From the IMG/VR virus record IMGVR_UViG_3300044716_000883, positions 115,382-179,381 of that record: a DNA stretch of 64,000 nucleotides; one strand, given 5' to 3'. Both the position numbers and the translations under genes were made by a program. The notes below the pieces were generated by a model. It was not told the DNA's origin. It did not search any database and saw nothing but the letters and a program-made list of their open reading frames with translations. Each line of letters opens with the position of its first letter. Within the stretch, counting starts at the first letter, position 1. Shown one piece after another: positions 13,805-38,655 of the stretch. The stretch is from a virus.

Positions 13805-15688
13805 ATGGCAAATGAATTTGTAGCCCGCAATGGCCTCATTGCACTTGATAATTCCACTATAAGTGGTTCTTTAAATGTAATTAATAATATTACTGGTTCT
13901 AACGCTTTGTTCACCGGTACTATTACGGCACAAACATTATTAGTCCAAGATATTACTTCCTCAAGAGACTTTGTAACTGGATCTACCAAATTTGGTACTG
14001 TCCCTGCAAATACCCATCAATTTACTGGTTCAGTAAGTATAAGTGGAAGCCTTGCTTTTCCAACAATAGCAATAGGTACAACAGAAACTAATATAGTTGT
14101 AGCTGATGCTAGTGGTAATCTTAGATTTAGATCAAATTTAAGTTTACAGGGGACCACAGGTGCAACAGGCGCTCAAGGAACTACAGGTGCCACTGGTGCA
14201 CAAGGTATACAAGGTACTATAGGTGCTCAAGGTGTTCAAGGTGTTCAAGGTGTTATGGGTGATACGGGCGCGCAAGGCGCTATAGGTACTGGTACACAAG
14301 GTGCTATAGGTGCTACTGGTGCACAAGGTACACAAGGTGCCATAGGTACAACTGGTGCACAAGGTGCTATAGGCACAACTGGTGCGCAAGGCGCTATAGG
14401 AGCAACAGGTGCTCAGGGTGTTCAAGGTGTACAAGGAACTACAGGCGCTACAGGTGCCCAAGGTACTATAGGTACAACTGGCGCTCAGGGTGCCACAGGT
14501 GCAACAGGCGCTCAGGGTGTTCAAGGTGTACAAGGTATTCAAGGTGTACAAGGTCTTCAAGGTATTCAAGGTACTATTGGTACTACAGGCGCTCAAGGAA
14601 CCACAGGCGCTATCGGTGCTCAAGGTGTTCAAGGTGTTCAAGGTACTATAGGTACAACCGGTGCTCAAGGAACAATCGGTACAACAGGTGCACAAGGAAC
14701 AATTGGTACAACCGGTGCACAAGGATCAACAGGTGCTACCGGTGCACAGGGGGCAACAGGCGCTACGGGTGCACAAGGCGCAACAGGCGCTACTGGTGCA
14801 CAAGGTACAATCGGTACAACGGGAGCACAAGGTACAACCGGTACAACAGGCGCTCAAGGAACCACGGGTACAACGGGAGCACAAGGTACTATTGGTACCA
14901 CAGGTGCTCAAGGTACTGTTGGTACTACAGGCGCTCAAGGAACTACAGGTGCAACAGGAGCAAGTGCAGGAATAACTTCATATACAAACGTAGCAGATAA
15001 TAGAGTAATAACATCCGTTAACTCATCTACTATCAATGCAGAAACAAATTTAACATTTGACGGATCTACTTTAACAGTATCTGGAAATACTGCAAATAAG
15101 GTATCTGTTGTAGGTTCAGGCAGTGCAGCAAACTATACTCTATTCTCAATAGATGGAGCAAACGGACGTCTATTTGAAGTAACAGATGACTTATCAGACT
15201 CATTATTTTCAGTAAATACAGTTGCCGGTTTACCTGTAATTGAAGCATTTGCAAATAGTACAGTTAGAATGGGTCAATTTGGTCAACAAGCATTATTTGT
15301 ATCAGCTACTTCAGTTGGTATGGGTAATGAAGCCCCAGCCTATAAACTTGACGTTACAGGTACTATTCGTGCCTCAGCAGACGTTATTGCATATTCAGAT
15401 GCTCGTGTCAAAACAGATGTTATTACAATTGAAAATGCACTTGATAAAGTAAAAGCATTACGTGGTGTAACATATATTCGTGTAGATACAGAAGATAAGT
15501 CTCGTAAAATGGGTGTAATTGCTCAAGAAACTGAAAAAGTATTACCTGAAGTAGTACAACAAGATGAGAAGGGTAGATATAGCGTTGCGTATGGTAACAT
15601 AGTTGGTGTATTAATTGAAGCAATAAAAGAACAACAATCACAGATTGATGAATTAAAAATATTAGTAAATCAATTATTAAATAAATAA
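13805..15688 (+). CDS. Collagen-like tail fibre with a C-terminal peptidase S74 intramolecular chaperone
   Basis: Long G-X-Y tract; SDARVKTD...[13 protein letters not shown]...GVIAQE.E..LPEVV...[16 protein letters not shown] is an S74-type signature. Confidence 0.85.
14150..14965 (+). repeat. Collagen G-X-Y tract, 90 triplets plus one GT interruption, no proline
   Basis: 272 codons made of [15 protein letters not shown] triplets. Confidence 0.9.
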
Positions 15689-19154: not shown

Positions 19155-19348
19155 CACAAGAAGAAAAAGAAAAAGAACAATTAGTTCTTGAACAACGTAA
19201 AGTTAAAGCATTAGAAAAAATTGCCACTACGTTAGACGCACTTACATGTTGGTTTGAAGAAATTGACAAAGATGAGTGGAGTGATAGGATTCAATTCTAC
19301 CTATCAGAATTTCATGAAGCCTCTGTAAAGAAGGAAGATAGTGAATAA
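19151..19348 (+). CDS. Small acidic hypothetical protein
   Basis: 65 aa, overlapping and coupled to both neighbours. Confidence 0.55.
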   Translation: MTQEEKEKEQLVLEQRKVKALEKIATTLDALTCWFEEIDKDEWSDRIQFYLSEFHEASVKKEDSE

Positions 19349-20636
19349 ACTGGGTGTAATAGTACCTTATAGGAATAGATATGAACAATTAACTGCGTTC
19401 AAAGAATCTATTACAAAGTATCTTGAATCCAAAAACATAAACTTTGAATTAATTATAGTTGAGCAAGATAATGCTAAACTTTTTAATAGAGGTATGTTAC
19501 TTAACATTGGATTTAAGTATGCTAAGAAACTTAAATGCAATTATGTTGTACTCCATGATGTGGATATGCTACCAATTGGTGTAGACTATTCTTATTCAGA
19601 TACACCTATACACTTAGCTACCGATAATATTCCATTTGAATCCTATTTCGGTGGTATTACATTATTCCCATCAGAATTATTTGAAAAAATAAATGGATTT
19701 TCTAATTTATATTGGGGTTGGGGATTTGAAGATGATGATTTACGATATAGATGTATAAAAAATAATATCCCATTCCAGAATATTATAGCTGATACATTTA
19801 CAAACGAGAAACTACCCATTTTTAATGGGATTGATGCCTATGCAACTATACCAAACGTTATAAATTATAATAGAAATTTTAAAATAGAATTAGATATTAA
19901 TTTAGATAGAGTCATTTATAATGTAGAAACACAATTTGATGAGTTTCCTATACTAACCATAGAGGGATATGATTTTAAGCTTTTCTATAATTCTTTTAAT
20001 AGATTTTATCTACAACTTTTTGATAAAAAGGGTAACTATTATGATGCACATTCAGACATTGTAACAACATCAAATAATAAAATAAAAATAGAATATAATA
20101 AAACTGATAAAACAATTATTTTTATAGTAAATGGTGTTCAAAATATTATTCAACTTTCAAATTATATACATAATTACTCTAACATAGATAATATAATAAT
20201 TGGTTCGGATAACATAAAAGAAAACTTTTTTAAAGGAACTATAAATGAATTTTTATTGAAAGAAAATGATGATGTAAAAATACATTATAAAAACTATAAT
20301 ATCACTAAATATAAATTTACTGACATTTCAGATAATAAAACTGATGGTAAATTTTTTAAAGTTTATTTAGATTATTTTAAACCATTTGTAAATCACTATT
20401 CATATATACCATTTAGACGAAGTAGTAAACTTTTAAAATTGGAACATGAAGATTGTGGATTTAACAATGGTAGATGGCAGGATGATAACAGTAGGTGGAA
20501 TCAATTGAGATATAACAATGAAGTACAATTAGGACATCACGATGGTATTGATGATGGGTTAACTACTTGTGTAGATTATAAAGTGTATAGCAAAATAAAA
20601 GATAATAAAATAACTCATTTAAATGTAGGAATATGA
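19341..20636 (+). CDS. GT7 (beta-1,4-galactosyltransferase-like) with an internal LamG-like insertion
   Basis: VIVPYRNR, FNRGMLLNIG, HDVDMLP, YFGG, GFSNLYWGWGFEDDD; the GT7 tail (EH...DGL..V.Y) resumes after the insert. Confidence 0.8.
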   Translation: MNKLGVIVPYRNRYEQLTAFKESITKYLESKNINFELIIVEQDNAKLFNRGMLLNIGFKYAKKLKCNYVVLHDVDMLPIGVDYSYSDTPIHLATDNIPFESYFGGITLFPSELFEKINGFSNLYWGWGFEDDDLRYRCIKNNIPFQNIIADTFTNEKLPIFNGIDAYATIPNVINYNRNFKIELDINLDRVIYNVETQFDEFPILTIEGYDFKLFYNSFNRFYLQLFDKKGNYYDAHSDIVTTSNNKIKIEYNKTDKTIIFIVNGVQNIIQLSNYIHNYSNIDNIIIGSDNIKENFFKGTINEFLLKENDDVKIHYKNYNITKYKFTDISDNKTDGKFFKVYLDYFKPFVNHYSYIPFRRSSKLLKLEHEDCGFNNGRWQDDNSRWNQLRYNNEVQLGHHDGIDDGLTTCVDYKVYSKIKDNKITHLNVGI

Positions 20637-22069
20637 AACTAGGAGTATGTGTGCCTTATAGAAATAGAGAAGCACATTTAAAAGAATTTGTACCTCGCGT
20701 AGGAAAATTTTTAGAAGAAAGAGGCATTGACTACTGCATGTATTTTGGCCATCAGGTAGATGACAAATTATTTAACAGAGGTGCTATGAAAAACATAGCA
20801 GCTAAACATGCTTTTGAGGATGGATGTGATTATATTGTATGGCACGATATTGATATGATCCCTGTAGATGATCATTGTGATTATTCTTTCCCTAAAGACA
20901 ATCCACGACATATAGCAGTTAATATTTCTAAACACAATTACCATTTAAAGTATGAAGATTACTTTGGTGGTGCTGTTATATTCTCAAAAGAACAAGTAGA
21001 AAAAACCAATGGTTATTCTAATGATTATTGGGATTGGGGTATGGAGGATGATGATTTGTTTTGGAGGTGCATATATGAAGGATATGCTAACATTAGTTAT
21101 CTAGATTATAAAGATAAAACTAATACTTATTTAAGATTTAATGGGTATGATTCTCATGTTAAAGTCCCATCAAGTCCTACTTTAAAAGACCTAACACATC
21201 GATCCCACACCATATCAATATTAGTTAGAGCCTTCCAGCAACAAGATAAAATGTCTATTTACTTGATAGGATCTGATAATAAACAATTTGTTGAATACCC
21301 TATATTAAGAAGACCAGGATATGACTATAGTATTTCTTATAATAATTCTAGAGCATATACTTCAATGTTATGGAATACATTTAATAAACCTTACTATCAA
21401 TGGATGAAACGCTTTGAAAACCAATGGAGTTGGGTAACAATAGCTACCGATGCTTATGAGAAAAAAATTCATGTCTATATGAATGGAGTTGAATCACAAT
21501 CATCATCAGGCACAGGTACTGATTCTCCAGCTATCTATGAAGGTAATTTAAAACGTTACATGGATATGGATTATTATTTAGGTACATCCCCCTTTTTGGG
21601 AGATGATAATCCTGGAAAATATTTTAAAGGAGACATGTCTAAACTAATGATGTGGGATAGGTGTTTGAGCGAAGAAGAAATATTATCTTCATTTAATAAT
21701 ACGATAGATGGTTTAGTACTTGACTATGATTTTAGTCATGACAAACTATTAAAGGATCAAACAGGAAATAATAATAATGGCTTAGTAACAAGCTGCTTTA
21801 AACTAGAAGAAGAAATAAAAGTACCAAACACAGTTGTCCCTTATAGAACACCGGGCCGTATGGATTGTTTAGAACATCCTGATGAAGGATTTCATGAAGG
21901 ATCTTGGATAAAAGGTAAAACAACGGCTCGTAATGAGGAAAGATTTATAATGCAAATGCAACAAGGTACAATTGATTATAAAAATGATGGTATGAATACT
22001 TTAAAATATACACTAGTAAATGTTGAAGAAATAACACCAAAAGCTAAATTAATTAACGTAGTGTTGTAA
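20633..22069 (+). CDS. GT7 paralogue with an internal LamG insertion
   Basis: VCVPYRNR, FNRG, HDIDMIP, YFGG, GYSNDYWDWGMEDDD; insert FNGYDSHV...WSWVTI...VYMNG...WDRCLS. Confidence 0.8.
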   Translation: MKLGVCVPYRNREAHLKEFVPRVGKFLEERGIDYCMYFGHQVDDKLFNRGAMKNIAAKHAFEDGCDYIVWHDIDMIPVDDHCDYSFPKDNPRHIAVNISKHNYHLKYEDYFGGAVIFSKEQVEKTNGYSNDYWDWGMEDDDLFWRCIYEGYANISYLDYKDKTNTYLRFNGYDSHVKVPSSPTLKDLTHRSHTISILVRAFQQQDKMSIYLIGSDNKQFVEYPILRRPGYDYSISYNNSRAYTSMLWNTFNKPYYQWMKRFENQWSWVTIATDAYEKKIHVYMNGVESQSSSGTGTDSPAIYEGNLKRYMDMDYYLGTSPFLGDDNPGKYFKGDMSKLMMWDRCLSEEEILSSFNNTIDGLVLDYDFSHDKLLKDQTGNNNNGLVTSCFKLEEEIKVPNTVVPYRTPGRMDCLEHPDEGFHEGSWIKGKTTARNEERFIMQMQQGTIDYKNDGMNTLKYTLVNVEEITPKAKLINVVL

Positions 22070-22095: not shown

Positions 22096-23574
22096 ATGTC
22101 AGAAGAATTAAGGTTATGGAGGGATAAAAATCTCAACAAAGTTAGTAAAAGCTTTTGTGCCGCCAAATGGTTAAATGCTAGTTTGCACCTAGGCCATGGA
22201 TTTACAAATTCATGCCATTTACCTCTACCCCACCCTGTTGATTTAGAAGAAATCAAGAAAAATCCATCAGCACTTCATAATACTCAGCATAAGAAAGAAA
22301 TGAGAAAAATGATGCTAAAAGGTGAACGTCCCGCTGAATGTTCATATTGTTGGAAAATTGAGGACATAGGTAGAGATAATATTTCGGATCGTGTTTATAA
22401 GAGTAAAATTTATTCTAAAGAAGATCTTAATCGTATTGCAAAAACTCCATTCCATGAGGATGTGAATTTAAAAACTGTAGAAATTAGCTTTGACAGAACA
22501 TGTACATTTGCTTGTTCTTATTGTAATGCTGGTTATAGTACAACATGGGGTAAGGAAATTAATAAATTTGGACCCTATCAGAAATTTAAAACAGTTTCAG
22601 CAGAAGCATACCAAAATGATGGGTCATGGGCCGACAAGTATGGTAAACATAGTCAGTTTAATCCTTATGTTGAAGCATTTTTAGCTTGGTGGCCTGAGTT
22701 ATCTAAAGAGTTACAAGAAGTAAGAATTACAGGTGGTGAACCAAGTGCTAGTCATAATTTTTGGAACTTTATTGAAACTCTAAAGCAATATCCCGCTGAA
22801 AATATGGCGTTGGCTGTTAACTCTAATCTAGGAATGGATCAGAAAACTCTAGAGAGAATGATCCAAATGACTAAAGATATTAAAATTAAAGAATTTGACT
22901 TATATACAAGCAATGAAGCTGTAGGAGCTCATGCTGAATATATTCGTGATGGATTAAAATATGATGTATGGAGACAAAATCTGGTAACATTTATTGAAAA
23001 TGCCAAATTTAGATCCGTTACTATAATGATGACTATTAATAGCCTATGCCTATTCAGTATAGATGAATTTTTAGATGACATGTTAGTGCTGAAAGAAAAA
23101 TACGGACCTAACAGACCAAATGTAGATTTAAATATTTTACGTTGGCCTGGATTTATGTCTCCTTTAGCTTTACCTGATGATATTAAAAAATCACTTCATA
23201 CTAGATTAAAAAGATGGTACAATAAAAATAAAAAGAATCCATTATTTAGTACAGGGGAAAAAGCTCAAATTGAACGTTTAATAGATTATATTGAAGTAGT
23301 TCAAAAAGGACATAACTATACTGAAGATGATAAAAGTTTATTATTGCATGATTTTAAATCATTTTATAAACAATATGATTTTAGACGTGGTAAAGACTTT
23401 AAAATGACATTCCCTGAATTAGCTGAATGGTATGATACTTTGGTTGTAGACCAAGACATACCATCAGTTGAAATGAAAGATGGATCTATAACTCACTTTG
23501 AAAAAGGTGTCTATATACCACCCCCAGGAACAATACCACCCCCAGAATTAAAACTACCACCCAAATTAATATAA
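22096..23574 (+). CDS. Radical SAM protein with an N-terminal twitch/SPASM-like Cys cluster
   Basis: CTFACSYC (CxxxCxxC), ITGGEP, NSN; N-terminal FC...SCH...CSYCW. Confidence 0.85.
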   Translation: MSEELRLWRDKNLNKVSKSFCAAKWLNASLHLGHGFTNSCHLPLPHPVDLEEIKKNPSALHNTQHKKEMRKMMLKGERPAECSYCWKIEDIGRDNISDRVYKSKIYSKEDLNRIAKTPFHEDVNLKTVEISFDRTCTFACSYCNAGYSTTWGKEINKFGPYQKFKTVSAEAYQNDGSWADKYGKHSQFNPYVEAFLAWWPELSKELQEVRITGGEPSASHNFWNFIETLKQYPAENMALAVNSNLGMDQKTLERMIQMTKDIKIKEFDLYTSNEAVGAHAEYIRDGLKYDVWRQNLVTFIENAKFRSVTIMMTINSLCLFSIDEFLDDMLVLKEKYGPNRPNVDLNILRWPGFMSPLALPDDIKKSLHTRLKRWYNKNKKNPLFSTGEKAQIERLIDYIEVVQKGHNYTEDDKSLLLHDFKSFYKQYDFRRGKDFKMTFPELAEWYDTLVVDQDIPSVEMKDGSITHFEKGVYIPPPGTIPPPELKLPPKLI

Positions 23575-25908: not shown

Positions 25909-26832
25909 ATGTACAGATGGCAATATAAAGATATTAATATAACTAATGATTCTAAAATAATAATAGGATTAGGAGATAGTTTTACTCAAGGACAAGGAGC
26001 ATGTGATGTCCATGTTTGGGAAAAATATAATTGGGATTTAAAAGACATGCAAAGTAAATATGAAAAAGATATATTACCTTTTGAGTATGAAGGAGCATGG
26101 GTCAATCAATTATGTAAAAATCATATGCCTGATTGGATTCCAATTAATTTTGGAATGAGAGGATGCGGTAATAGAGCCACCACAAAACAACTCTATTTAC
26201 ACCCAGATTTAGGTATAGAAAAAGCAAAAGAAAAAATAGTAATATTTGCTGTTACTGGTTTTGAAAGATTTGACTTTGTAAATAAATCATTTAATGATCA
26301 CCATCAATTTTTTGCTATGTGGCCAAGCCCCTGGAGTGATGGAGCTACAAATAAAAAATTATGGGAAGCCTACCATGAGGATATCTTTGATGAACGTTTT
26401 TCAATAGTTGAAGCTTTATTAAATATATGTGAAGTTCAAACATGGTGTAAAGCAAATAATGCTAAATTTATATTATGTAGTGCCTTTAATAGTAATTTAA
26501 ATAGAAAATATTTTGAAAAATATCTAAGAAAAGATAATAATTCTAATTTAAGTTTATTAAACCTAATAGATTGGAATGATATCTTCAGACCTCAAGGATT
26601 TGAAAGTTTTACTGATATGTTAGTTCATTATGAGAATAGAGAAGATTTAAAAGGAGGTGGCTTTTACATGTGGGCCCATGAGCAAAAGAAAGGAACACCT
26701 GAGGGGTATTTTACTCCATGTGCTCATCCGTCTTATAAAGGACATAAACTAATAGCTGAATCCATGTATGAATATATTCAAAATAATTTTAAAAATATAA
26801 ACCAACCAAAACAATCAATTAATATAATTTAA
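25909..26832 (+). CDS. SGNH/GDSL-family hydrolase or acyltransferase
   Basis: GLGDSFTQG, G..GCGN, HPSYKGH. Confidence 0.7.
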   Translation: MYRWQYKDINITNDSKIIIGLGDSFTQGQGACDVHVWEKYNWDLKDMQSKYEKDILPFEYEGAWVNQLCKNHMPDWIPINFGMRGCGNRATTKQLYLHPDLGIEKAKEKIVIFAVTGFERFDFVNKSFNDHHQFFAMWPSPWSDGATNKKLWEAYHEDIFDERFSIVEALLNICEVQTWCKANNAKFILCSAFNSNLNRKYFEKYLRKDNNSNLSLLNLIDWNDIFRPQGFESFTDMLVHYENREDLKGGGFYMWAHEQKKGTPEGYFTPCAHPSYKGHKLIAESMYEYIQNNFKNINQPKQSINII

Positions 26833-26833
26833 T

Positions 26834-27658
26834 ATGAATCAATTTCCTCATTTCCCTTGGTATTTTAATAAAAAAGAATTCTTTAAAATGAACACATCTG
26901 TTGCGCCAGAAATGGATTTTTATCCTGCTGACCATAAAGATGCTTATGAAAAAAATCTGAAAACCCAACCAGAAGACTGGCATTATAGAACTAAAAAAAT
27001 TAAATATAAACTTAATTCACTTGGGTATAGAGCCCCAGAATTTAATACTATTAAATGGAATGAATCTGTAGTTTTATTTGGTTGTTCTTGTACATTTGGA
27101 ATTGGAGTAGATGAAGATGAAACTATATCTCATTACTTAAATGAAAAACTAGATAGACCTGTTATAAACATGGGATGGCCTGGTGGTTCTAATATGAATA
27201 TGTTAATGAATTCTTTAGTGTTATCTCAATCAAATCAAATACCTTATGCTATAGTATTTTTATGGAGCACAACAGATAGACTTCCTTTATTTACTGATAG
27301 ACAGGTTTATAATGTCGGGCCTTGGGATTCTAATGAAAATAAAAAAAATGTAGAATATAGAGATTCATATAATGATATTTCTAATGCTTTGTTTGAAAAT
27401 TATAACTTTTTTATTCAAAATGAAACTATGAATAGTTATTTTACATCTCAATTTGCTAAAGAAATATGGAAAGAAAAAACAAAATACATAACAGGTACTT
27501 TTTTCAATAACACTGCATTGTGTATGGATACACACCACGTATTTAAAATAGATAACAAAGCCAGAGATTTAGTCCATCCAGGAATAGAATCTAATAAATC
27601 AGCAGCTAGTAATTTAGCCCACTTAATAGAAAATTATGGAGTCAAAAATTTATTGTAG
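26834..27658 (+). CDS. SGNH-family protein
   Basis: LFGCSCTFG, NMGWPGGSN, DLVHPG. Confidence 0.65.
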   Translation: MNQFPHFPWYFNKKEFFKMNTSVAPEMDFYPADHKDAYEKNLKTQPEDWHYRTKKIKYKLNSLGYRAPEFNTIKWNESVVLFGCSCTFGIGVDEDETISHYLNEKLDRPVINMGWPGGSNMNMLMNSLVLSQSNQIPYAIVFLWSTTDRLPLFTDRQVYNVGPWDSNENKKNVEYRDSYNDISNALFENYNFFIQNETMNSYFTSQFAKEIWKEKTKYITGTFFNNTALCMDTHHVFKIDNKARDLVHPGIESNKSAASNLAHLIENYGVKNLL

Positions 27659-29724: not shown

Positions 29725-30897
29725 ATGAAAGTAGGTTTTATTGGCGTTGGCAAATTAGGCAAAGACGCCGCTGAAGTTATGCATGAAGCAGGTCATGATG
29801 TTTTAGGGTATGATGTAAGGATAGTGCATGACACAAAGATTAGAATGACAACATCATTAAAAAATGTTTGTGAGTATGGTGATATTATTTTTATCGCGGT
29901 TCCAACCCCACACCACCCAGATTATGATGGTAGCCAACCAACATCACATTTAGAGCCAAAAGATTTTAACTATAATATTGTTAAAAACATATTAGAAGAA
30001 ATTAATCAATACACAACTAAAGAACAATTAGTAGTGTTAATATCAACAGTTCTACCAGGTACTACAAGACGTGAGTTTATTCCATTAGTAAAAAATTATA
30101 GGTTTATTTATAATCCTTATTTAATTGCTATGGGTACTGTAAAATATGATATGGTTAATCCTGAGATGGTAATAATAGGAACTGAAGACGGTACTGAAAC
30201 AGGGGATGCTAAATTGTTAACTGAATTTTATAAATCATTTGTATATAATAATATAAGATATGAAATTGGTACTTGGGACGATGCTGAAGCAATTAAAATA
30301 TTCTATAACACATTTATCTCAGCCAAATTATCATTAGTTAATATGATAATGGATGTAGCTGAAATAAATGGTAATATGAATACAGATGTTGTGACAGGTG
30401 CTTTAGAAAGAAGTACAAAACGAATTATGGGTTCTTCTTATATGAAAGCTGGTATGGGAGATGGAGGTGGGTGTCATCCTCGAGATAATATTGCTTTAAG
30501 ATACATGGCTGAAAAATATAAGTTAGGATATGATTTATTTGATTCTATTATGAAATCTAGAGAAGTTCAAGCTGAAAACATAGCTAAACGCTTAATAGAA
30601 TTACACGATGTATATGAACTACCAATTGTTATTCTAGGCGAAAGCTACAAACCAGGAGTTCCATATATAGATGGTTCTTACACTAAATTAATTGGTTATT
30701 ATTTAGAAAATAAATTAGAATATAAAGGATTACAATATGATAAAACTGATAATCAGGCTGTGTATTTATTAGGACATAGGGGTGTACATAACACTACCGA
30801 TTTCCCTAAGGGTAGCATTATTTTAGATCCTTGGAGAGAAAGACTTAAAAAAGATACAATCTATTACGGAAATAAAATAACAAGATGGATATACTAG
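29725..30897 (+). CDS. ugd: UDP-glucose/GDP-mannose dehydrogenase family
   Basis: GFIGVGKLG, FIAVPTP, STVLPGT, NP, K..YN.F...K.S, GGGCHPRD, YKP. Confidence 0.85.
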   Translation: MKVGFIGVGKLGKDAAEVMHEAGHDVLGYDVRIVHDTKIRMTTSLKNVCEYGDIIFIAVPTPHHPDYDGSQPTSHLEPKDFNYNIVKNILEEINQYTTKEQLVVLISTVLPGTTRREFIPLVKNYRFIYNPYLIAMGTVKYDMVNPEMVIIGTEDGTETGDAKLLTEFYKSFVYNNIRYEIGTWDDAEAIKIFYNTFISAKLSLVNMIMDVAEINGNMNTDVVTGALERSTKRIMGSSYMKAGMGDGGGCHPRDNIALRYMAEKYKLGYDLFDSIMKSREVQAENIAKRLIELHDVYELPIVILGESYKPGVPYIDGSYTKLIGYYLENKLEYKGLQYDKTDNQAVYLLGHRGVHNTTDFPKGSIILDPWRERLKKDTIYYGNKITRWIY

Positions 30898-32456
30898 GAA
30901 TATCAGCATATTACCATGACTCAGCAGCTTGCTTATTTAGAGACGGCAAATTGATATATGCTTGTGAAGAAGAAAAATTTACAGGTATTAAACATGATTC
31001 TTCATTTCCTGTTAATTCAATAAAGTATATTTTTGATCATTTTACTGATAAAGTAGATCTTGTATGCTATTATGAAAAACCTTCTTTAAAAATAAAAAGA
31101 GCATTTAAACATAATCTTAAATCTGTTCCTCGTATATTGTGGACTAGTATTAAATTATGGTTTCAATTAGGGCAATTTAATGCTCCTGTACATTATTCTT
31201 CTCACCATAATTCTCATTTAGCATATGCTTATTATACCTCACCTTTTGATAAAGCAACAGTAATTAGCATAGATGGCGTTGGTGAGGAAGATACAATATG
31301 TGTTGCTAAAGCTGAGTATGGAAGAATAACACCAATAAAAACAACTAAATATCCACATTCATTAGGATTATTTTATTCTGCTATAACAGCATTTTTAGGA
31401 TTTAAACCAAATGAAGGTGAATATAAAGTAATGGGTTTAGCATCATATGGTGACCCCTCAGTGTATTCTGGTGCTTTCAATAAATTAATTTCTCATAGAG
31501 ATGGTATTAAAACAAACATGAAATACTTTACTTGGGATAAAAGTAATGATACTATGTTTAATCATCACTTAATAGAATTATTAGGTGATAATAGATTACC
31601 TAATGAACCAATAACCCAACGTCATAAAGATATTGCTGCTGCTTTACAACAACAATATGAGAGTATGTTTTTCTATTTATTAAATCAACATCCTGGAGAA
31701 AATTTATGTTTAGGGGGTGGTTGTGCTTATAATGGAACCGCAAATGGCAAAATTAAAGTATACACCGATTATAAAAACATTTATATACCACAAGCACCAT
31801 CAGATGCTGGATCGTGTATTGGTGCGTGTTTAAATTATTTAGGGTACCATCGTGAAGTAGACAAATATTTAGGGCCACATTTTGATACACAAATTCAAGG
31901 TGCTAGACTTTTAAATTTATGGCTACTTGCTGAAGAATTATATAAAGGTAAAGTTATAGGTTGGTATGAAGGTAAAATTGAATTTGGAGCTCGCGCATTG
32001 GGTCACCGCAGTATATTAGCAAGCCCAACATACCCTGGTATGCAAGACCGTATCAATAAGCTCATTAAAAAACGAGAAATGTTCAGGCCTTTTGCTCCAA
32101 TGGTAACTTATAATACCCAAAATAAGTATTTTTATTCCGATGATTACGTGCCTTATATGAACCAAGTAGTTAAGGTTAGAGAAGAATATAGAGATAAACT
32201 AACCGCAATTACACATGTTGATGGTACTGCTCGTATACAATCTGTAAAATTAGAAGATAATGATAGAATATATAGATTATTAAATCTTTTTGGTGAGCAT
32301 AGTGGATTTCCTATATTATTGAATACATCATTCAATATAAAAGATAAAACAATGGTGCTATACCCAGAAGATGCTTTACAAACGTTCTGGGATACCGACA
32401 TAGACATATTAGTTATTAACAATCAAATGATATTTAAAAATGATAAAATTAATTAA
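30885..32456 (+). CDS. NodU/CmcH-family carbamoyltransferase
   Basis: LGISAYYHDSAA, HH.SH, IDGVGE, SLGLFY, EYKVMGLA.YG, GGCAYN, D.G, EFGARALGHRS, FRPFAP, HVDGTARIQ, LNTSFN. Confidence 0.92.
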   Translation: MDILGISAYYHDSAACLFRDGKLIYACEEEKFTGIKHDSSFPVNSIKYIFDHFTDKVDLVCYYEKPSLKIKRAFKHNLKSVPRILWTSIKLWFQLGQFNAPVHYSSHHNSHLAYAYYTSPFDKATVISIDGVGEEDTICVAKAEYGRITPIKTTKYPHSLGLFYSAITAFLGFKPNEGEYKVMGLASYGDPSVYSGAFNKLISHRDGIKTNMKYFTWDKSNDTMFNHHLIELLGDNRLPNEPITQRHKDIAAALQQQYESMFFYLLNQHPGENLCLGGGCAYNGTANGKIKVYTDYKNIYIPQAPSDAGSCIGACLNYLGYHREVDKYLGPHFDTQIQGARLLNLWLLAEELYKGKVIGWYEGKIEFGARALGHRSILASPTYPGMQDRINKLIKKREMFRPFAPMVTYNTQNKYFYSDDYVPYMNQVVKVREEYRDKLTAITHVDGTARIQSVKLEDNDRIYRLLNLFGEHSGFPILLNTSFNIKDKTMVLYPEDALQTFWDTDIDILVINNQMIFKNDKIN

Positions 32457-32547
32457 ACGCTGGATTGATAAATGGAAACACAAGCGTAAAATGAAAAAAA
32501 GAATTGAACAACTAAAGAAAAACGATCCATTCATCTATAAACATTAA
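32440..32547 (+). CDS. 35-aa basic peptide MIKLIKRWIDKWKHKRKMKKRIEQLKKNDPFIYKH, absent from the ORF track
   Basis: ATG 32440 to TAA 32547, coupled to both neighbours. Confidence 0.6.
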   Translation: MIKLIKRWIDKWKHKRKMKKRIEQLKKNDPFIYKH

Positions 32548-32548
32548 T

Positions 32549-32968
32549 ATGATAACAGTATTATTTGGACAACCACACTCAGGTAAAACAACATTAGCTG
32601 ATAAACTAGAAGCGGATTATTATATAGATGGAGACCATCTAAGAACTATGTTTCAAAACAAAGATTATAGTAGGCAAGGTAGAATTAATAACTTAAATAG
32701 AGCTAGTGATATTGCTACTTATTTACATTATAACGGTGAAAACGTAGTTTTATCTTTAGTTTATCCATACCAAGAAACAAGAAATTACTTAAATGGCTTG
32801 GTACCTGGGGTTAAATGGATTTATTTAACATATGAAATAGATAGAGGTAGAGAACAATTCCACGTAGCTGATTTTGAACACCCAGCTGATGATGAAGCTC
32901 TATACTTAAATACAGAATGGATAAGCGAAGAAGATTGTATCAAACAAATTAAAGAATATGTGGGATAA
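32549..32968 (+). CDS. Adenylylsulfate kinase (CysC)-like P-loop kinase, short
   Basis: GQPHSGKTT, IDGDHLR, R..NLNRASDIA, SLVYPY..TR. Confidence 0.7.
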   Translation: MITVLFGQPHSGKTTLADKLEADYYIDGDHLRTMFQNKDYSRQGRINNLNRASDIATYLHYNGENVVLSLVYPYQETRNYLNGLVPGVKWIYLTYEIDRGREQFHVADFEHPADDEALYLNTEWISEEDCIKQIKEYVG

Positions 32969-33356
32969 GAAAGTACATGTTAAAAGTTCAATGGAACGTA
33001 AAGATAGTCAATGGTCATTGTTTATTGGACGTTGGCAACCACTCCACACAGGCCATAAAGAATTATTTAGACAAGTAATTAGTGAAGGTGGTAAAGTGTG
33101 TGTTGGTATTAGAGATGGAGAAGTTAATGAAAAAAATCCATTTAGTCCATTTCAAGTAATGGATACTATTTTTAATGAAATGCAAGCTGAAGTAGAAGCA
33201 GGCACTCTAAAAGTAATCATTATACCAGATATTTGCAGTGTTGAATTTGGACGCGGTGTTGGATACGATATTATAGAGCATATACCACCACCAGAAGTGG
33301 CCGAAATATCAGCGACTAAAATACGTGAACAAATGAAATCTGAAGGTAAATTATGA
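32958..33356 (+). CDS. HxGH nucleotidyltransferase (cytidylyltransferase/NMNAT-like fold)
   Basis: FIGRWQPLHTGH, KNPF, EISATKIR. Confidence 0.8.
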   Translation: MWDKKVHVKSSMERKDSQWSLFIGRWQPLHTGHKELFRQVISEGGKVCVGIRDGEVNEKNPFSPFQVMDTIFNEMQAEVEAGTLKVIIIPDICSVEFGRGVGYDIIEHIPPPEVAEISATKIREQMKSEGKL

Positions 33357-33700
33357 TAAAATATCCTACCTATTTTGTAGATATAGATGGTACACTAATT
33401 AAGTACAGAAAATTCAGTGAAATAAATGAAATACCACCAACACCTATACAAAGTGTTATTGATAAAGTAAATAATGAATATGACAACGGTACTCATATAG
33501 TAATTACAACTGCTCGACCTGCAGAACTTGAGTTGTTTACAAAACAAGAACTAGAAAAAATTGGCGTAAAATACCATCAATTAGTAATGGAAATTGGTAG
33601 AGGTACAAGATACATTATCAATGATAGAGACCCAGAAGCACCTGAAGTTGATAGAGCAGTTGGTATTAATTTAAATAGAAATGAAGGAATATGCATGTAA
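33353..33700 (+). CDS. Minimal HAD-superfamily phosphatase
   Basis: FVDIDGTL, ITTAR, IINDR. Confidence 0.75.
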   Translation: MIKYPTYFVDIDGTLIKYRKFSEINEIPPTPIQSVIDKVNNEYDNGTHIVITTARPAELELFTKQELEKIGVKYHQLVMEIGRGTRYIINDRDPEAPEVDRAVGINLNRNEGICM

Positions 33701-33900
33701 GTAAAAAAAGACATATAGCCAAAACCATTAGTTATCGCGTTATTAGTACGCTGATTGGATTTGGCATTATGTGGGCTGTTACCGGCAGCATTAAAATCGG
33801 TGCTGCGTTTGGTATTGCTGAATTAGTATATAAACCAATACAGTATTACATTCATGAACGGATATGGTATAAGTGGATTAAATATGGTTTAAAAAACTAA
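33691..33900 (+). CDS. DUF2061-like small membrane protein
   Basis: RHIAKTISYR...YYIHERIW. Confidence 0.7.
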   Translation: MHVSKKRHIAKTISYRVISTLIGFGIMWAVTGSIKIGAAFGIAELVYKPIQYYIHERIWYKWIKYGLKN

Positions 33901-33914: not shown

Positions 33915-34202
33915 ATGAATAAAATAAAAGAAATAATGAGTGCATGGGCTGTATCATTTAACCCATCACCAGAACAAAGAGAATTAGCGGAGAAGCGATA
34001 TGAGATATGTTTAGGTTGCGAACATTATGGTAAAAGTAGACCTGTAATCGGAGATGAATATTGTAAAAAATGTTTATGTTCTCTACAAAAAAAGGTATAT
34101 ACACCGAAATTAAACAAAACCTGTCCTCTTAAAAAATGGGAAATTGTAGAAAAAGAATTTAAAGATAAAGAAATAAAAAAAAATAAACAAACATTAATAT
34201 AA
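33915..34202 (+). CDS. Small six-Cys protein, paralogue of 38422..38655
   Basis: AE.R..IC..C...C..C.C.L.KK...CPL.KW. Confidence 0.7.
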   Translation: MNKIKEIMSAWAVSFNPSPEQRELAEKRYEICLGCEHYGKSRPVIGDEYCKKCLCSLQKKVYTPKLNKTCPLKKWEIVEKEFKDKEIKKNKQTLI

Positions 34203-34206
34203 TAAT

Positions 34207-35670
34207 ATGAGAGCAGTTATAGTCGGACTAGATTTTATATATGACTCAGTTGGCAATTTACTACCAATAGAAATGAACACAAACATTGGTTATGCCAACC
34301 AAAAAGTTGAAAAGGATTCAGATGTTTTTGATATGACTGAGTTTCAAAACTTTGTAACCACAAATGGGTTTTTAAAAGTAACATATATAGGTAAAAATAC
34401 TCAAATTAAAGAACAAATTGAAAAGGTTACTACTCAACTTTCTTTAGAATTTGAGTCAATGTTGGTCTCAACATCTGCTATTACTATACCATATGTTGAA
34501 GATAGTCCAACACATTTAATTGTAAGAACAGCTTTTGACACGACTGCAATTTTAGATGATCTTTATTGTGGAAATAAGATTAATTATTTAAACCTAATAA
34601 AAGACTCCGAATTTGGACTAGAGTTTGCATATCTTAATGAAGATGGAGAGTTAGTTAACCACATCACAAATATATTAGATAATGGAATCCACCCAAACTT
34701 CATATTAAAGGCTGTAAAACCAGCATATGACAAAAAAATATACCCAAAATTTTATAGAGTTTCAAATCAAACAGAATTAGATATTGTATTACAAAACGTA
34801 ACCTCTGATTATTTTTTAATGCCATTCTACTTTAATGAAACAAAACTACATTCAGAAAAAATAACTAAAATAAGAAAAATTAGTATGTTTTTTCCTCCTA
34901 ACTTGGAGTCTATCCATATAGGAGCATATACTGATTTAGCAATACAAAAATTAAATAGCAATGTTGTTTTTGATCCAGATACATTTGAAATAGATAACAT
35001 AAATAGGTTGGCATACTTTACAAGAGATTTCAGGATAGAGGGTTTACCGAAATTAATGGATGATGATTATGTAATAATGGCTGATGATACAATGAAGAGC
35101 GGATTGGATTTGCAAGTTGGTGATTTAGTTAAAACAATAGATATACCCAACCCAGAAAATGCTGATGCTAAGAATATAATGGTTAATTATCAAATTGATA
35201 TGGAAACCTTTTTAAGTGGTGTTACATATAGTACAAATAAAGTAACAAGCAAAAGAAGAATTGATATTGTAGTTGAAGTTATGGAAATAAATTTTAGTGA
35301 TGGTACAAATTGGTTCGATACAGTAAACTCAAGTTATTTAGTTTACGAAAATAATGAAATTAAATTTAAAAAAATAATGGATTTTGTTGAAGGAGACATT
35401 GTGTTATTAGTTGATACATCTGATAGCCAGAATGTACAAATACAACAAAAAATAGTACAAAGCACAACCTTAAAAGAAAAAGAATTTTCAGGTTGGACAA
35501 TTTCAGTTGAGAGAGAACATCTATTTTTAACAGTTACAACACCAAACACTACTAATGTATCTTTTGCTAATACATTTTTTGCTGCGGTGGAACATAATTA
35601 TTATTCCTGTATTTATGACACTACATGTGGTAAAGGTTACTTTTGTCTCCGAGGCAGATGTACAACATAA
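34207..35670 (+). CDS. Fusion protein: putative circularly permuted ATP-grasp + Hint domain + C-terminal 4-Cys peptide
   Basis: N-terminal GLDFIYD..GNLLPIEMNTN.G; PNFILKAVKP; Hint blocks KLMDDDYVIMADDTMKSGLDLQVGDLV through AAVEHN; then YYSCIYDTTCGKGYFCLRGRCTT. Confidence 0.6.
   Translation: MRAVIVGLDFIYDSVGNLLPIEMNTNIGYANQKVEKDSDVFDMTEFQNFVTTNGFLKVTYIGKNTQIKEQIEKVTTQLSLEFESMLVSTSAITIPYVEDSPTHLIVRTAFDTTAILDDLYCGNKINYLNLIKDSEFGLEFAYLNEDGELVNHITNILDNGIHPNFILKAVKPAYDKKIYPKFYRVSNQTELDIVLQNVTSDYFLMPFYFNETKLHSEKITKIRKISMFFPPNLESIHIGAYTDLAIQKLNSNVVFDPDTFEIDNINRLAYFTRDFRIEGLPKLMDDDYVIMADDTMKSGLDLQVGDLVKTIDIPNPENADAKNIMVNYQIDMETFLSGVTYSTNKVTSKRRIDIVVEVMEINFSDGTNWFDTVNSSYLVYENNEIKFKKIMDFVEGDIVLLVDTSDSQNVQIQQKIVQSTTLKEKEFSGWTISVEREHLFLTVTTPNTTNVSFANTFFAAVEHNYYSCIYDTTCGKGYFCLRGRCTT
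35050..35598 (+). other. Hint (intein-like) domain ending in His-Asn, with Lys at the Cys1 position
   Basis: Manual alignment to intein blocks A, B, F and G. Confidence 0.7.
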
Positions 35671-35717: not shown

Positions 35718-35795
35718 ATGACAAGTCAAGAAAAACAAATTACAGACAATATTGTAAATAGTATTGGTAATTTAATAGTGCAGGCTAATAGCTAA
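35718..35795 (+). CDS. 25-aa ORF MTSQEKQITDNIVNSIGNLIVQANS, absent from the ORF track
   Basis: ATG to TAA within the 150-bp gap, preceded by an A-rich leader like other genes. Confidence 0.4.
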   Translation: MTSQEKQITDNIVNSIGNLIVQANS

Positions 35796-35821: not shown

Positions 35822-36553
35822 ATGTCAATTTGTGTAAATAACGACCTTATATGGGTGGCAACCCCAAAATGTGCTAGCATGTCTATAGAATGTGCTTTTA
35901 TTAATTCTAATCTGAACATAGATCATTACAAATACGGACAAAGTAAATCTTATCCTGAACATCATCATATTAGGTTATCTGATTTGTATCAAAAATTTGG
36001 TAAAAAAGATACTGCAGTAATTAAAAGAGATTATTTTGACAGATGGATTAGTGGATTACAGTATTTGTGGATGATGTATGAGGAAAAAAATTATGAAATA
36101 ATAATAAAATGGGAAGATATCAATAATGATTTTATATATGAGACTTTCACACCAGAATTTATCGATCAAATATACTCTTTACCATCCTCAGTAAATTCAT
36201 CAGATCTATTAAGTTTTAGCGAAATAAACAAATATAAGGAAGTATTAAAACTAATTACTTCTAAATTAGTAAAACCAAAACTAAAAGACTCTAATACCCC
36301 CTTTAATCCATATTTTTTGCTAAAATCACAATCACATTGGGTAGATAATAATAAATGTACATATGAATTTAATATTAGTGAGATTGACAAATTTGAAAAT
36401 TTTATTTCAAATAGATATAATGTGAAATTTAAGGTATGTAAGTTAAATCAAAATAAATCTAGAAAAAATCAAATCATAAAAGACGAAAAACTTAAACAAT
36501 GGGTATGGGATAATTTTGAGAAAAGATTTGAAAAAAGAAACTCATTAATATGA
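35822..36553 (+). CDS. Sulfotransferase family 2-like
   Basis: WVATPKCASMSI PAPS-binding loop, HHHI, RDYFDRWISG, SQSHW. Confidence 0.7.
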   Translation: MSICVNNDLIWVATPKCASMSIECAFINSNLNIDHYKYGQSKSYPEHHHIRLSDLYQKFGKKDTAVIKRDYFDRWISGLQYLWMMYEEKNYEIIIKWEDINNDFIYETFTPEFIDQIYSLPSSVNSSDLLSFSEINKYKEVLKLITSKLVKPKLKDSNTPFNPYFLLKSQSHWVDNNKCTYEFNISEIDKFENFISNRYNVKFKVCKLNQNKSRKNQIIKDEKLKQWVWDNFEKRFEKRNSLI

Positions 36554-37047
36554 TAATATCAAACAAATATTTTAATCATTCTGAATGTTTAACTATATTA
36601 GATTTTGTAAAATCCAACCAACAAAAATGGAAATTATTTAATAGAGAATATGAATCCCATGCTATAGATTATTCACTTGAAACAATGTGGTTATTTGAAA
36701 AGCTTAGTTCTTTTTTTGAAGAAAATATAAATTTAAAAATAAAAAAATTAAAACCACAAATACATTTTCATAAATTTAAAGAAGGTGATTGGTTTGGAAA
36801 ACATAATGACGCCCGAGATAATAGAGTATATGCTGTCGGTGTTTTATTAAATGACAATTTTGATGGAGGAGATTTTAAATTTTATAACCCAACAGAACAA
36901 ACACTAAATAAAATAGTAGGAAATACTTACTTGTTTGATGTTAGAATTGAACATGAAATAACACCTATTATAAAAGGAGAAAGATATTCATTATTGTGGT
37001 TTTTACAAAACGAACATATCAAATTTCAAACAAATAAATTAATATAA
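36550..37047 (+). CDS. 2OG-Fe(II) oxygenase (prolyl-4-hydroxylase-like)
   Basis: KF.EGDWFGKHND (HxD), FDGGDF, HEITPI.KGERYSL. Confidence 0.85.
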   Translation: MIISNKYFNHSECLTILDFVKSNQQKWKLFNREYESHAIDYSLETMWLFEKLSSFFEENINLKIKKLKPQIHFHKFKEGDWFGKHNDARDNRVYAVGVLLNDNFDGGDFKFYNPTEQTLNKIVGNTYLFDVRIEHEITPIIKGERYSLLWFLQNEHIKFQTNKLI

Positions 37048-37664
37048 TGAAAGGTACAGAAGAACTTATAATAAGTAACAATGCAATAAAATTATCAACT
37101 GATGATGAATATAGTGCCGTTATGCACATTGCCGAAAAATCTATAATGAATAAACTTGCAGAAATTGTTACTAAAAATGGAGGTGATATACTAGAAATTG
37201 GATTTGGTATGAACCTATCTGCCGATGCTATACAATCAAATCCAAATGTAACGTCTCATACTATAATTGAAATCCATCCTATACAATACCAAAGAGCATT
37301 AGAATGGGCAAAATTGCAAAAAAAGAAAACTACAATTTTACTAGGAGATTGGATTGATTTACTTCCACTTTCTGATGTAAAATTCGATGGTATTTTACAT
37401 GATACACATTTAGACTCAAATATACATAAATTTTTAGACTATGTTGTAGATAATTGTAAAAAAAATACGATTGTTGGTTTTTTTGGATTTCCTAAATTTG
37501 ACTTACGTTTAAATGGAGTTAGATGTTCAATTGATAGTGAAATATATGAAACACTCCCTTATAAGGATAATATACATTTTAAACATAATCAATTTGAATT
37601 AAAATATACTATATTTGATGGAACACAATTTAAATCAGACAATAAAACAATATCTTTACTATAA
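37047..37664 (+). CDS. GAMT/Rmt2-like guanidino N-methyltransferase
   Basis: VMHIAE..IM..LA...GGDILEIGFGM...HTIIE.HP...W...FDGILHDT closely follows guanidinoacetate methyltransferase motifs. Confidence 0.7.
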   Translation: MKGTEELIISNNAIKLSTDDEYSAVMHIAEKSIMNKLAEIVTKNGGDILEIGFGMNLSADAIQSNPNVTSHTIIEIHPIQYQRALEWAKLQKKKTTILLGDWIDLLPLSDVKFDGILHDTHLDSNIHKFLDYVVDNCKKNTIVGFFGFPKFDLRLNGVRCSIDSEIYETLPYKDNIHFKHNQFELKYTIFDGTQFKSDNKTISLL

Positions 37665-38185: not shown

Positions 38186-38422
38186 ATGACAGTATTAGTA
38201 ATCCTAATCATCGTTGCCGTAGCGGTATTCGTTGCTATGAAAACCGGTAAGGTTAAAGATGCAAACAACAACAACATTCCTGACGCTATTGAAAAGCCAC
38301 TTGAAGAAGTAAAAGAAGTAGTTAAAGCAACTGTTGCAAAAGTAAAAGCTACTAAAGCACCACAAGCTCCTAAAGCAACAAAAAAACCAGTAGCAAAAAC
38401 TAGTGCTAAAAAGCAAAAGTAA
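38186..38422 (+). CDS. Membrane-anchored small protein with a Lys/Ala/Pro-rich tail
   Basis: N-terminal hydrophobic helix, DANNNNIPD, KAPKATKKPVAK tail. Confidence 0.65.
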   Translation: MTVLVILIIVAVAVFVAMKTGKVKDANNNNIPDAIEKPLEEVKEVVKATVAKVKATKAPQAPKATKKPVAKTSAKKQK

Positions 38423-38655
38423 TGCTAAAACTAGCAGAAATAGCTAAGGCATGGATAGCAGCAGCTAATCCAACACCTGGGCAAAAAATTATAGCAGAGC
38501 ATAGGGCGAGTGTTTGTGACACTTGCCCAAGCAAAGCTTATAATAAAATAATGGATTTCTATTTTTGCAGTGAATGTGGATGTCCACTAAACAAAAAAAT
38601 TTTCAGTCCTGTTGAGGGACCTAAAGCTTGCCCGTTAGCTAAATGGGAAAAATAA
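38422..38655 (+). CDS. Small six-Cys protein, paralogue of 33915..34202
   Basis: Same Cys spacing and AW..NP.P.Q...AE.R motif. Confidence 0.7.
   Translation: MLKLAEIAKAWIAAANPTPGQKIIAEHRASVCDTCPSKAYNKIMDFYFCSECGCPLNKKIFSPVEGPKACPLAKWEK

Follow-up and report, generated by a model that had tools for sequence, protein, structure and literature searches.

In bacterial polymorphic toxins, a HINT domain that directly precedes the variable C-terminal toxin has been read as the protease which releases it (Zhang et al. 2012, PMC3482391). Judged by analogy, such a pretoxin-HINT module (PF07591) is what the gene described here is most like in its way of working. The gene is found in a 64,000-nucleotide stretch, positions 115,382–179,381, of the IMG/VR virus record IMGVR_UViG_3300044716_000883. 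This whole stretch is called the window below, and coordinates refer to it unless a locus label is given. The gene is an uninterrupted open reading frame (ORF) on the + strand (34207..35670) coding for 487 amino acids and is labelled P0001 among its relatives. Its product is composed of a predicted circularly permuted ATP-grasp ligase domain (residues 1–277, 34207..35037), a Hint domain that appears restricted to a C-terminal cut (residues 278–464, 35038..35598) and a hypervariable tail of 23 amino acids directly followed by the stop codon (residues 465–487, 35599..35670).

Common to pretoxin-HINT proteins and to this fusion protein are a constant upstream part and a Hint autopeptidase directly before a polymorphic cargo. 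They differ as an ATP-grasp domain here takes the upstream place of the secretion or filament module, the Hint domain has no N-terminal nucleophile, the cargo is mostly a cysteine-rich peptide of 20–50 amino acids, no immunity gene is evident and the family is found only in phages. The protein is also not a member of PF07591: with this profile P0001 gave no hit at E up to 10, and a long form of the family (P0176) reached 21.3 bits against a cut-off of 27.7.

The kinds of chemistry involved, Hint-mediated cargo release and ATP-grasp peptide chemistry, are both known, and a full-text literature search, including a survey of conflict systems in jumbo phages (PMC7824862), found no description of an ATP-grasp–Hint fusion. 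We suggest, with a probability of about 0.55, that one chain serves as precursor and as enzyme and that the Hint domain releases the cysteine-rich peptide, the gene and its neighbours forming a cassette similar to those of peptides synthesized on ribosomes and modified post-translationally (RiPPs). Comparison of the models and of the relatives shows that one protein combines a predicted ligase domain whose metal and ATP residues appear intact, a Hint domain restricted to a C-terminal cut and a polymorphic cargo that always bears lysine.

Domains of the fusion protein

The fusion protein was modelled with an alignment of 117 sequences, and the model is confident (predicted local distance difference test, pLDDT, 87.9; predicted template modelling score 0.83) apart from residues 446–487. 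By sequence, P0001 has a sole hit in Pfam, Intein_splicing at E 0.85, with no match to a Pfam ATP-grasp family, and no match in PHROGs. In the PDB the single sequence reaches PolII mini-inteins at E 0.03 and the family profile finds nothing. By structure, residues 278–464 align to the NpuDnaB intein with a VIA Z score of 13.9 and a root-mean-square deviation of 2.4 Å over 139 residues. Intein position 1 corresponds to K282, whose codon begins at 35050, and the last intein residue to N464, whose codon ends at 35598. VIA also matches the Tetrahymena bacterial intein-like (BIL) domain BIL2 (Z 13.4) and hedgehog (Z 12.8), and Foldseek finds BIL2 with an E-value of 9.5e-8. In addition, hhalign aligns the Hint part to the canonical Hint domains of distant family members with a probability of 96.8% (E 2e-10) and maps T372 to the block-B Thr, S375 to the site of the block-B His and H438 to the block-F His.

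In inteins, cyclisation of the terminal Asn is driven by His F:13, His G:6 and Asn G:7, and the N-terminal acyl shift is brought about by Cys1 and the block-B His (PMC4031507). The Hint domain of P0001 ends with A-V-E462-H463-N464, and H463-N464 is kept in all subfamilies down to about 25% identity. Position 1 is occupied among the relatives by Lys, Leu, Tyr, His, Gln, Gly, Glu or Asn and never by Cys, Ser or Thr, and S375 at the block-B His site is invariant within the near clade. The +1 residue is Y465, and a Cys, Ser or Thr stands at this position in only 39 of 210 relatives. Since the domain keeps the set of residues for Asn cyclisation, has lost the set for the acyl shift and is followed by Tyr, splicing is impossible and cleavage at the C-terminus is the sole Hint reaction left. 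The modelled domain thus fits a Hint domain able to cut only at its own C-terminus. With inteins and A-type BIL domains it has in common the Hint fold (Z 12–14), blocks A, F and G and the terminal His-Asn, and A-type BIL domains likewise have no +1 nucleophile. It is, however, neither an intein nor an A-type BIL domain, as three features that define these were tested and are absent. With Lys at position 1 there is no thioester and no splicing, Ser replaces the block-B His, and only C-terminal cleavage is left. A class-3 W-C-T intein signature was not seen in the domain either. We considered K282 as an isopeptide partner of N464 (Lys-Asn) or as a catalytic Lys and dropped this idea, as K282 is not conserved beyond the near clade.

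Residues 1–275 find structural matches solely among ATP-grasp enzymes. For the ligase domain modelled alone (pLDDT 92.3), the Foldseek E-values range from 1.5e-6 to 1e-4 over yeast and human glutathione synthetase, YjfC, YgiC and GspS (yeast glutathione synthetase 1.5e-6, YjfC 8e-6, YgiC 1.5e-5), and VIA gives GspS with Z 8.8 (205 amino acids), YgiC with Z 8.4 and 3k1t with Z 8.1. According to work cited in PMC12568646, YgiC and YjfC are peptide-spermidine ligases. The circular permutation is directly visible in the alignments, as those to the permuted enzymes GspS, YgiC, glutathione synthetase, 3n6x, 3k1t and Cp1B span residues 1–275, whereas those to the classical ATP-grasp proteins RimK, ArgX/LysX, Ddl, PurK and TTLL begin only at about residue 55, with residue 1 of the classical protein. 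The non-permuted folds also match weakly (8ynd Z 4.7, RimK Z 5.7; ArgX, LysX and RimK Z 5.6–5.8). Residues 1–277 are thus modelled as a carboxylate-amine ligase of the GspS/YgiC/glutathione synthetase type, a circularly permuted ATP-grasp with the D...E-x-N metal-binding hairpin at its N-terminus.

This hairpin is contained in the motif G7-L-D9-F-I-Y-D13..G16..L.P-I-E22-M-N24-T-N, and P-N-F-I-L-K-A-V-K-P follows further on. D9, E22, N24, R107, D117, K168 and R223 are invariant across all subfamilies, again down to about 25% identity. In the Escherichia coli enzyme Gss the stretch G-R-M-D-F-C-M-D-E-R-G-L-K-V-Y-E-Y-N contains D318, E330 and N332, which we take to be the Mg ligands. Aligned by eye, and consistent with the structural alignment ranges, these residues correspond to D9, E22 and N24, N-K498 of Gss to N-K124 and V-K533-P to L-K168-A. 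The mapping of D9, E22, N24, K124 and K168, most of them invariant, rests on motifs and structural alignment ranges because hhalign found no meaningful match between the family profile and E. coli Gss taken as a single sequence. Likewise, the GSP_synth family (PF03738) gave no Pfam hit, and a search for this family in the phage genome was empty while the E. coli and Caulobacter controls were found. With GspS, YgiC/YjfC, eukaryotic glutathione synthetase and Cp1B the domain shares the fold, the permutation and N-K and [LV]-K-[AP] at matching places. It differs from this group in an identity of only about 10%, in its length of 277 amino acids versus about 400–480, in the absence of the equivalent of Gss R316 and in its fusion to a Hint domain. 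By its model the ligase belongs to the fold group of permuted ATP-grasp proteins, as a divergent member which matches no sequence family.

The tail of P0001 (coding sequence 35599..35667) has a mass of 2675 Da, a pI of 8.5 and the cysteine spacing C-x5-C-x5-C-x4-C. Its sole lysine is K476 (35632..35634) in a C-G-K-G motif, and it also contains D471 and several Ser and Thr residues. For a comparison we used 210 non-redundant tails of 10–75 amino acids with a median length of 35.5. The number of cysteines is even (4, 6, 8 or 10) in 204 of them, which suggests disulfides and thereby a function outside the reducing cytoplasm. At least one lysine is present in all 210 tails and also in all three stubs of 5–7 amino acids, that is in 213 of 213 tails up to 75 amino acids. 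Exactly one lysine is found in 148 of the 210, and in 151 a lysine is part of a C-x-K motif; in the distant clade it stands at, or almost at, the very end of the tail. Some tails, for example that of P0013, contain neither Asp nor Glu. Between proteins whose bodies are 70–80% identical, the tails are 34% identical (24% when cysteines are excluded); the tail evolves about twice as fast as the body. A cyclisation of the tail lysine onto the C-terminus of the tail itself was considered and dropped, as in the distant clade this lysine is itself the last or next-to-last residue.

The initial annotation had described the N-terminus as a circularly permuted ATP-grasp and 35050..35598 as Hint-like, with Cys1 replaced by Lys, the block-B His missing and the terminal His-Asn intact. 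Foldseek and VIA on the model bear out both domains (for residues 278–464 with the Z of 13.9 to the NpuDnaB intein and the Foldseek E-value of 9.5e-8 given above), and the three active-site statements hold for K282, S375 and H463-N464. The tail of 23 amino acids is present as it was described, and the question whether His-Asn is conserved while the peptide varies has a positive answer, since His-Asn is found in every subfamily and the tail is hypervariable.

Relatives and variant architectures

A word-indexed search yielded 424 relatives and an exhaustive profile search 355 cluster representatives. All of them are metagenomic or viral and annotated as hypothetical, and the clusters of the family in the ESM Atlas are 100% viral. 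No relative was found in 185,579 species genomes, and tblastn against 50,697 deposited phage records gave no match. In its parent record the fusion gene is single-copy. Another virus, IMGVR_UViG_3300042892_005961 (211 kb; loci L019 and L067), contains the fusion gene as two paralogues separated by about 38 kb.

The cargo behind His-Asn ranges from 5 to about 1240 amino acids and is usually a peptide of 20–50 amino acids. In 37 members the tail is longer than 75 amino acids, and some of these tails contain BACON repeats or a Peptidase_S74 domain.

Several relatives have further self-processing modules around the peptide. In P0180, P0195, P0209, P0228 and P0231 the first Hint domain with its His-Asn is followed by the cysteine-rich peptide, a second Hint domain of canonical type (Cys1...H-N) and a stub containing lysine. 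The +1 residue of this second Hint domain is not Cys, Ser or Thr. A-type BIL domains are able to join their flanks without a +1 nucleophile (PMC4031507). As the flanks of the second Hint domain (...G-G-S and K-K...) match uninterrupted relatives ending with ...G-G-S-K, it looks like an A-type BIL domain that would splice by aminolysis. The cysteine-rich peptide of P0222 and P0062 has behind it the S-D-I-R-L-K motif typical of the self-cleaving S74 chaperone, and P0257 and P0269 have two canonical Hint domains in tandem and a cargo of only a few residues. Given these three different self-processing solutions around one peptide, release of the peptide is the most economical reading, and the variant architectures argue for peptide excision. 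Among the distant relatives with canonical Hint domains (locus L086:6001-7959), a third Hint domain is sometimes inserted besides the second.

In P0153 (L088:81-1034) the ATP-grasp domain is fused straight to the end ...I-G-N-Q-I-L-L-K-N-S, and both the Hint domain and the cysteine-rich tail are missing. This end is similar to that of a micro-peptide encoded next to the fusion gene (see below). As a Rosetta-stone fusion P0153 was set aside: Gln replaces E22, it is known from a single contig and it is possibly a decay product.

Micro-peptide, C-terminal tag and proposed mechanism

Directly downstream of the fusion gene lies a micro-ORF of 25 amino acids (35718..35795, + strand) with the end ...I-G-N-L-I-V-Q-A-N-S. 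Gene neighbourhoods were compared in 83 viral loci, and in 81 of them a micro-ORF is found 12–58 nt downstream of the fusion gene. Its entropy at codon positions 1, 2 and 3 is 0.47, 0.30 and 1.06; as the third position is the most variable one, the micro-ORF is under coding selection. Its terminal sequence I-G-x-L-I-[VI]-x-x-N-S hardly varies: all 52 distinct peptides have the last Ser and 48 of 52 the preceding Asn. The distant clade has a diverged version. In the pairs LysW/LysX-ArgX, S6/RimK and Pup/PafA, an ATP-dependent carboxylate-amine ligase is likewise encoded beside a small protein or peptide whose C-terminus is conserved. The candidate micro-peptide differs from these in that it ends with Asn-Ser and not with Glu and in that the ligase belongs to another clade.

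In addition, at least ten unrelated families of neighbouring proteins end with a common tag, [KN]-x-[STNK]-L-[IL]. Within the island around the fusion gene the tag is present on 7 of 24 ORFs versus 2 of 218 elsewhere in the genome (Fisher p 1e-6, the region having been picked after looking), and in 50 kb of the immuto phage, which has no fusion gene, on 1 of 87. The seven tagged ORFs end at 23574, 26832, 27658, 34202, 36553, 37047 and 37664. The tagged set consists of radical S-adenosylmethionine (SAM), SGNH-like, sulfotransferase-like, 2-oxoglutarate (2OG) oxygenase, methyltransferase-like and zinc-ribbon proteins. The families without the tag are small-molecule enzymes, namely carbamoyltransferase, adenosine 5′-phosphosulfate (APS) kinase and cytidylyltransferase, and also DUF2061. 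The distant clade has the same layout, and there a Trp-halogenase-like protein and a radical-SAM enzyme are tagged as well. Ser of the tag is encoded by codons of both families, Thr by four codons and Leu and Ile by several, and all three stop codons occur behind it; the tag is thus a feature on the protein level. The possibility that it results from a DNA motif or from overlapping genes was dropped in view of these varied codons and of distances to the next gene from −4 to more than 60 nt.

From these observations a sequence of events can be proposed. Upon folding, N464 would cyclise to a succinimide with cleavage of the N464-Y465 bond, by which the 2.7-kDa peptide with its four cysteines would be freed with a new alpha-amine; once it has left the reducing cytoplasm, for instance upon lysis, it would probably form two disulfides. 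The role of the ligase is a weaker part of the proposal. The closest ligases of known function, GspS among them, couple the C-terminal carboxylate of a peptide or the carboxylate of a small molecule to an amine. By analogy with GspS and YgiC, the ligase would turn a carboxylate into an acyl phosphate and join this to the still tethered peptide, so that an amine of the cargo would probably become acylated and the tail may be the ligase's own substrate. The most likely acceptor would be the always-present lysine (K476) or the amine that the Hint domain exposes when it cuts. As acyl donor the C-terminus of the co-conserved micro-peptide appears likeliest; tagged neighbours, or a sugar acid provided via the adjacent UDP-glucose dehydrogenase, could serve instead. 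The [ST]-L-I tag might be a docking signal which brings oxygenases, sulfotransferase-like, methyltransferase and radical-SAM enzymes to the carrier. The peptide and the candidate tailoring enzymes do co-occur in the 83 loci, and the release domain is built into the precursor. Taken as a whole, a new peptide-maturation system with a tethered substrate, tailoring enzymes recruited by a [KN]-x-[ST]-L-I tag, a carboxylate of the micro-peptide or of a tagged protein joined to the cargo lysine and a final release of the disulfide peptide by the Hint domain is a tentative and rather doubtful proposal.

Several points weigh against a precursor that is also its own enzyme. The tail is modelled with low confidence (pLDDT 48–63) and nothing puts it into the active site of the ligase. 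Asn cyclisation proceeds slowly in many inteins or requires that other steps come first (PMC4031507), and in the Hint domain of P0001 these other steps cannot occur. The ligase domain is about 120–200 amino acids shorter than GspS or glutathione synthetase and has no Pfam ATP-grasp match, and by eye an Arg equivalent to Gss R316 is not kept. BACON cargo of up to about 1200 amino acids does not look like the core of a RiPP. Many sugar-nucleotide enzymes and glycosyltransferases are encoded nearby, so that ligase and tailoring enzymes may act on a glycan. Finally, all loci belong to a single phage lineage, so that the gene order may be partly inherited rather than functional.

Four other explanations appear less probable. 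The ligase-Hint body might merely carry and release a diversifying effector, for instance a bacteriocin-like peptide, an anti-competitor factor or an adhesin, while the ligase acts elsewhere, on a host protein or a glycan. A constant body with a hypervariable tail, cargo of 5 to about 1200 amino acids including the BACON-repeat forms, the weak PT-HINT match of the long form P0176 (E 3e-4), the two paralogues in one phage (L019 and L067) and the precedent of HINT domains before variable toxins (PMC3482391) would all agree with such a module. We nevertheless regard it as unlikely, since no immunity-like gene is evident, secretion or trafficking domains and a signal peptide are missing, and the strict co-conservation of His-Asn and the active-site residues of the ligase across all architectures, together with the lysine in 213 of 213 short tails, suggests a chemical link between ligase and cargo. 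In another scenario the ligase would link the released cargo covalently, by its lysine or the newly formed N-terminus, to a virion protein carboxylate, so that variable cysteine knobs or BACON adhesins decorate the particle. The gene in fact has the tail-fibre genes on one side and the tail sheath on the other, a long BACON form lies immediately upstream of the sheath gene, some members contain the Peptidase_S74 tail-fibre chaperone domain and hypervariability is typical of receptor-binding parts. However, the constant part has no homology to structural proteins and no PHROG hit, the neighbours are enzymes and not structural proteins, and a ligase used once and stoichiometrically would be costly for a structural role, which makes decoration of the virion quite improbable.

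ATP-grasp amidation of uronic acids is known. The Hint domain could also be a structural remnant without cleavage activity and the protein a ligase that amidates a glycan or metabolite, for example a uronic acid, and ends with a small cysteine knob. UDP-glucose dehydrogenase, epimerase, GT7-type glycosyltransferases and carbamoyltransferase in the island, as well as the frequent coupling of Asn cyclisation in inteins to steps impossible here, speak for it. But a dead domain would not hold H438, H463 and N464 invariant to 25% identity while position 1 drifts, and in two other architectures a second self-processing module flanks the same peptide; we give this explanation as little credit as virion decoration. 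The initial annotation had pointed to graspetide ligases, which crosslink Asp or Glu to Ser, Thr or Lys, and such ester or amide crosslinks could be made by the ATP-grasp domain in its own tail before release. As in graspetide (microviridin-type) systems, an ATP-grasp is coupled genetically to a ribosomal peptide with tailoring enzymes nearby; ligase and peptide are even in one chain, and the tail offers D471, K476 and several Ser and Thr. This part of the annotation is not supported: crosslinking of this type is unlikely because the ligase clusters with GspS, YgiC and glutathione synthetase, outside the clade of the graspetide ligases, and because some tails (that of P0013, for example) have no Asp or Glu. 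In addition, the classical peptide ATP-grasp enzymes match weakly and only from about residue 55, the lysine is nearly or exactly the last residue in the distant clade and the cargo may have 5 or more than 1000 amino acids. There is also no leader or separate precursor, release is built in as a Hint domain instead of a protease, and acidic residues are not conserved. A graspetide-like route is therefore the least probable of these explanations.

If cleavage and ligation by a self-contained precursor are both true, the protein would present a naturally occurring Hint domain that serves C-terminal release only, placed in one chain with an ATP-dependent amide ligase, and would provide a compact route to make and perhaps decorate a free disulfide-rich peptide. 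The hundreds of fast-diverging cysteine-rich tails would then be a large unexplored library of phage peptides. That tailoring enzymes of unrelated families share the tag hints that they are recruited differently than by leader-peptide recognition, and if recruitment by the tag and conjugation to lysine are true as modelled, the system would be categorically new. Possible tools are a traceless, thiol-free C-terminal self-cleaving tag and a peptide ligase.

Gene neighbourhood and source phage

In the 83 loci the fusion gene is accompanied by a recurrent set of genes (positions counted from the fusion gene). Downstream, 2OG-Fe(II) oxygenases are found at +2 to +8, often in several copies (70 loci), a family of 93-amino-acid six-cysteine zinc-ribbon proteins mostly as the next gene after the fusion gene (69 loci), a sulfotransferase-like family of 229 amino acids at +2 to +4 (67 loci) and a second sulfotransferase-like family (51 loci). 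Upstream, DUF2061 is found at −1 (44 loci), a cytidylyltransferase-like protein at −2 (46 loci), an APS-kinase-like protein at −3 (36 loci) and a carbamoyltransferase at −4 (42 loci). This upstream order from −1 to −5 is kept in 36–46 of the 83 loci and likewise in the distant clade.

In the window, all on the + strand, a zinc-ribbon-like protein of 95 amino acids (33915..34202) with the end ...K-Q-T-L-I precedes the fusion gene; its family alignment shows six invariant cysteines and the tag. The predicted complex of the fusion protein with this neighbour had a score of 0.01, which speaks neither for nor against binding. An untagged paralogue of 77 amino acids from the same cluster is located at 38422..38655. 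Behind the micro-ORF follow a protein of 243 amino acids (35822..36553, end ...R-N-S-L-I), which is called sulfotransferase-like by its T-P-K-C-A-S-M-S motif alone and has no Pfam hit, a prolyl-4-hydroxylase-like 2OG-Fe(II) oxygenase (36550..37047, PF13640 E 5e-8, end ...T-N-K-L-I) and a SAM-methyltransferase-like protein of 205 amino acids (37047..37664, weak Methyltransf_25 match, E 0.026, end ...K-T-I-S-L-L). Upstream are a radical-SAM protein (22096..23574, PF04055 E 7.6e-6, end ...P-P-K-L-I), two further ORFs with the tag at the C-terminus (25909..26832 and 26834..27658) and an untagged block (29725..33900) in which Pfam identifies UDP-glucose dehydrogenase, carbamoyltransferase, APS-kinase-like, cytidylyltransferase-like, haloacid dehalogenase-type phosphatase and DUF2061 membrane proteins. 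The same island encodes GT7-type glycosyltransferases and an epimerase. A scan for promoters and terminators found fewer promoter-like sites than in shuffled sequences.

Some genes of these cassettes deserve a separate mention. Two adjoining GT7-type (beta-1,4-galactosyltransferase-like) glycosyltransferases are encoded at 19341..22069, one of them fused to a Laminin_G_3 lectin-like domain; this family is typical of eukaryotes and unusual for a phage. At 32549..33356 the APS-kinase-like gene overlaps a small HxGH nucleotidyltransferase-like gene, near the two sulfotransferase-like families, and to judge from the sequences this pair may supply 3′-phosphoadenosine 5′-phosphosulfate for sulfation. 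Related cassettes encode an Asp/Asn beta-hydroxylase (L001:13443-14003), a SET-domain protein (L001:11882-12262) and a Trp-halogenase-like protein (L086:8813-10357), all of them types of enzymes that modify proteins or peptides.

The parent record comprises 179,381 bp and is complete with terminal repeats; it stems from an uncultured virus. As its tail sheath is 52% identical to that of the Flavobacterium phage vB_FspM_immuto, the phage is probably a large myovirus with a host from the phylum Bacteroidota. Towards the start of the window a giant ORF of 2369 amino acids (1402..8511) has no PHROG match and lies upstream of tail-fibre-like genes, among which the region 13805..15688 shows strong tail-fibre matches.

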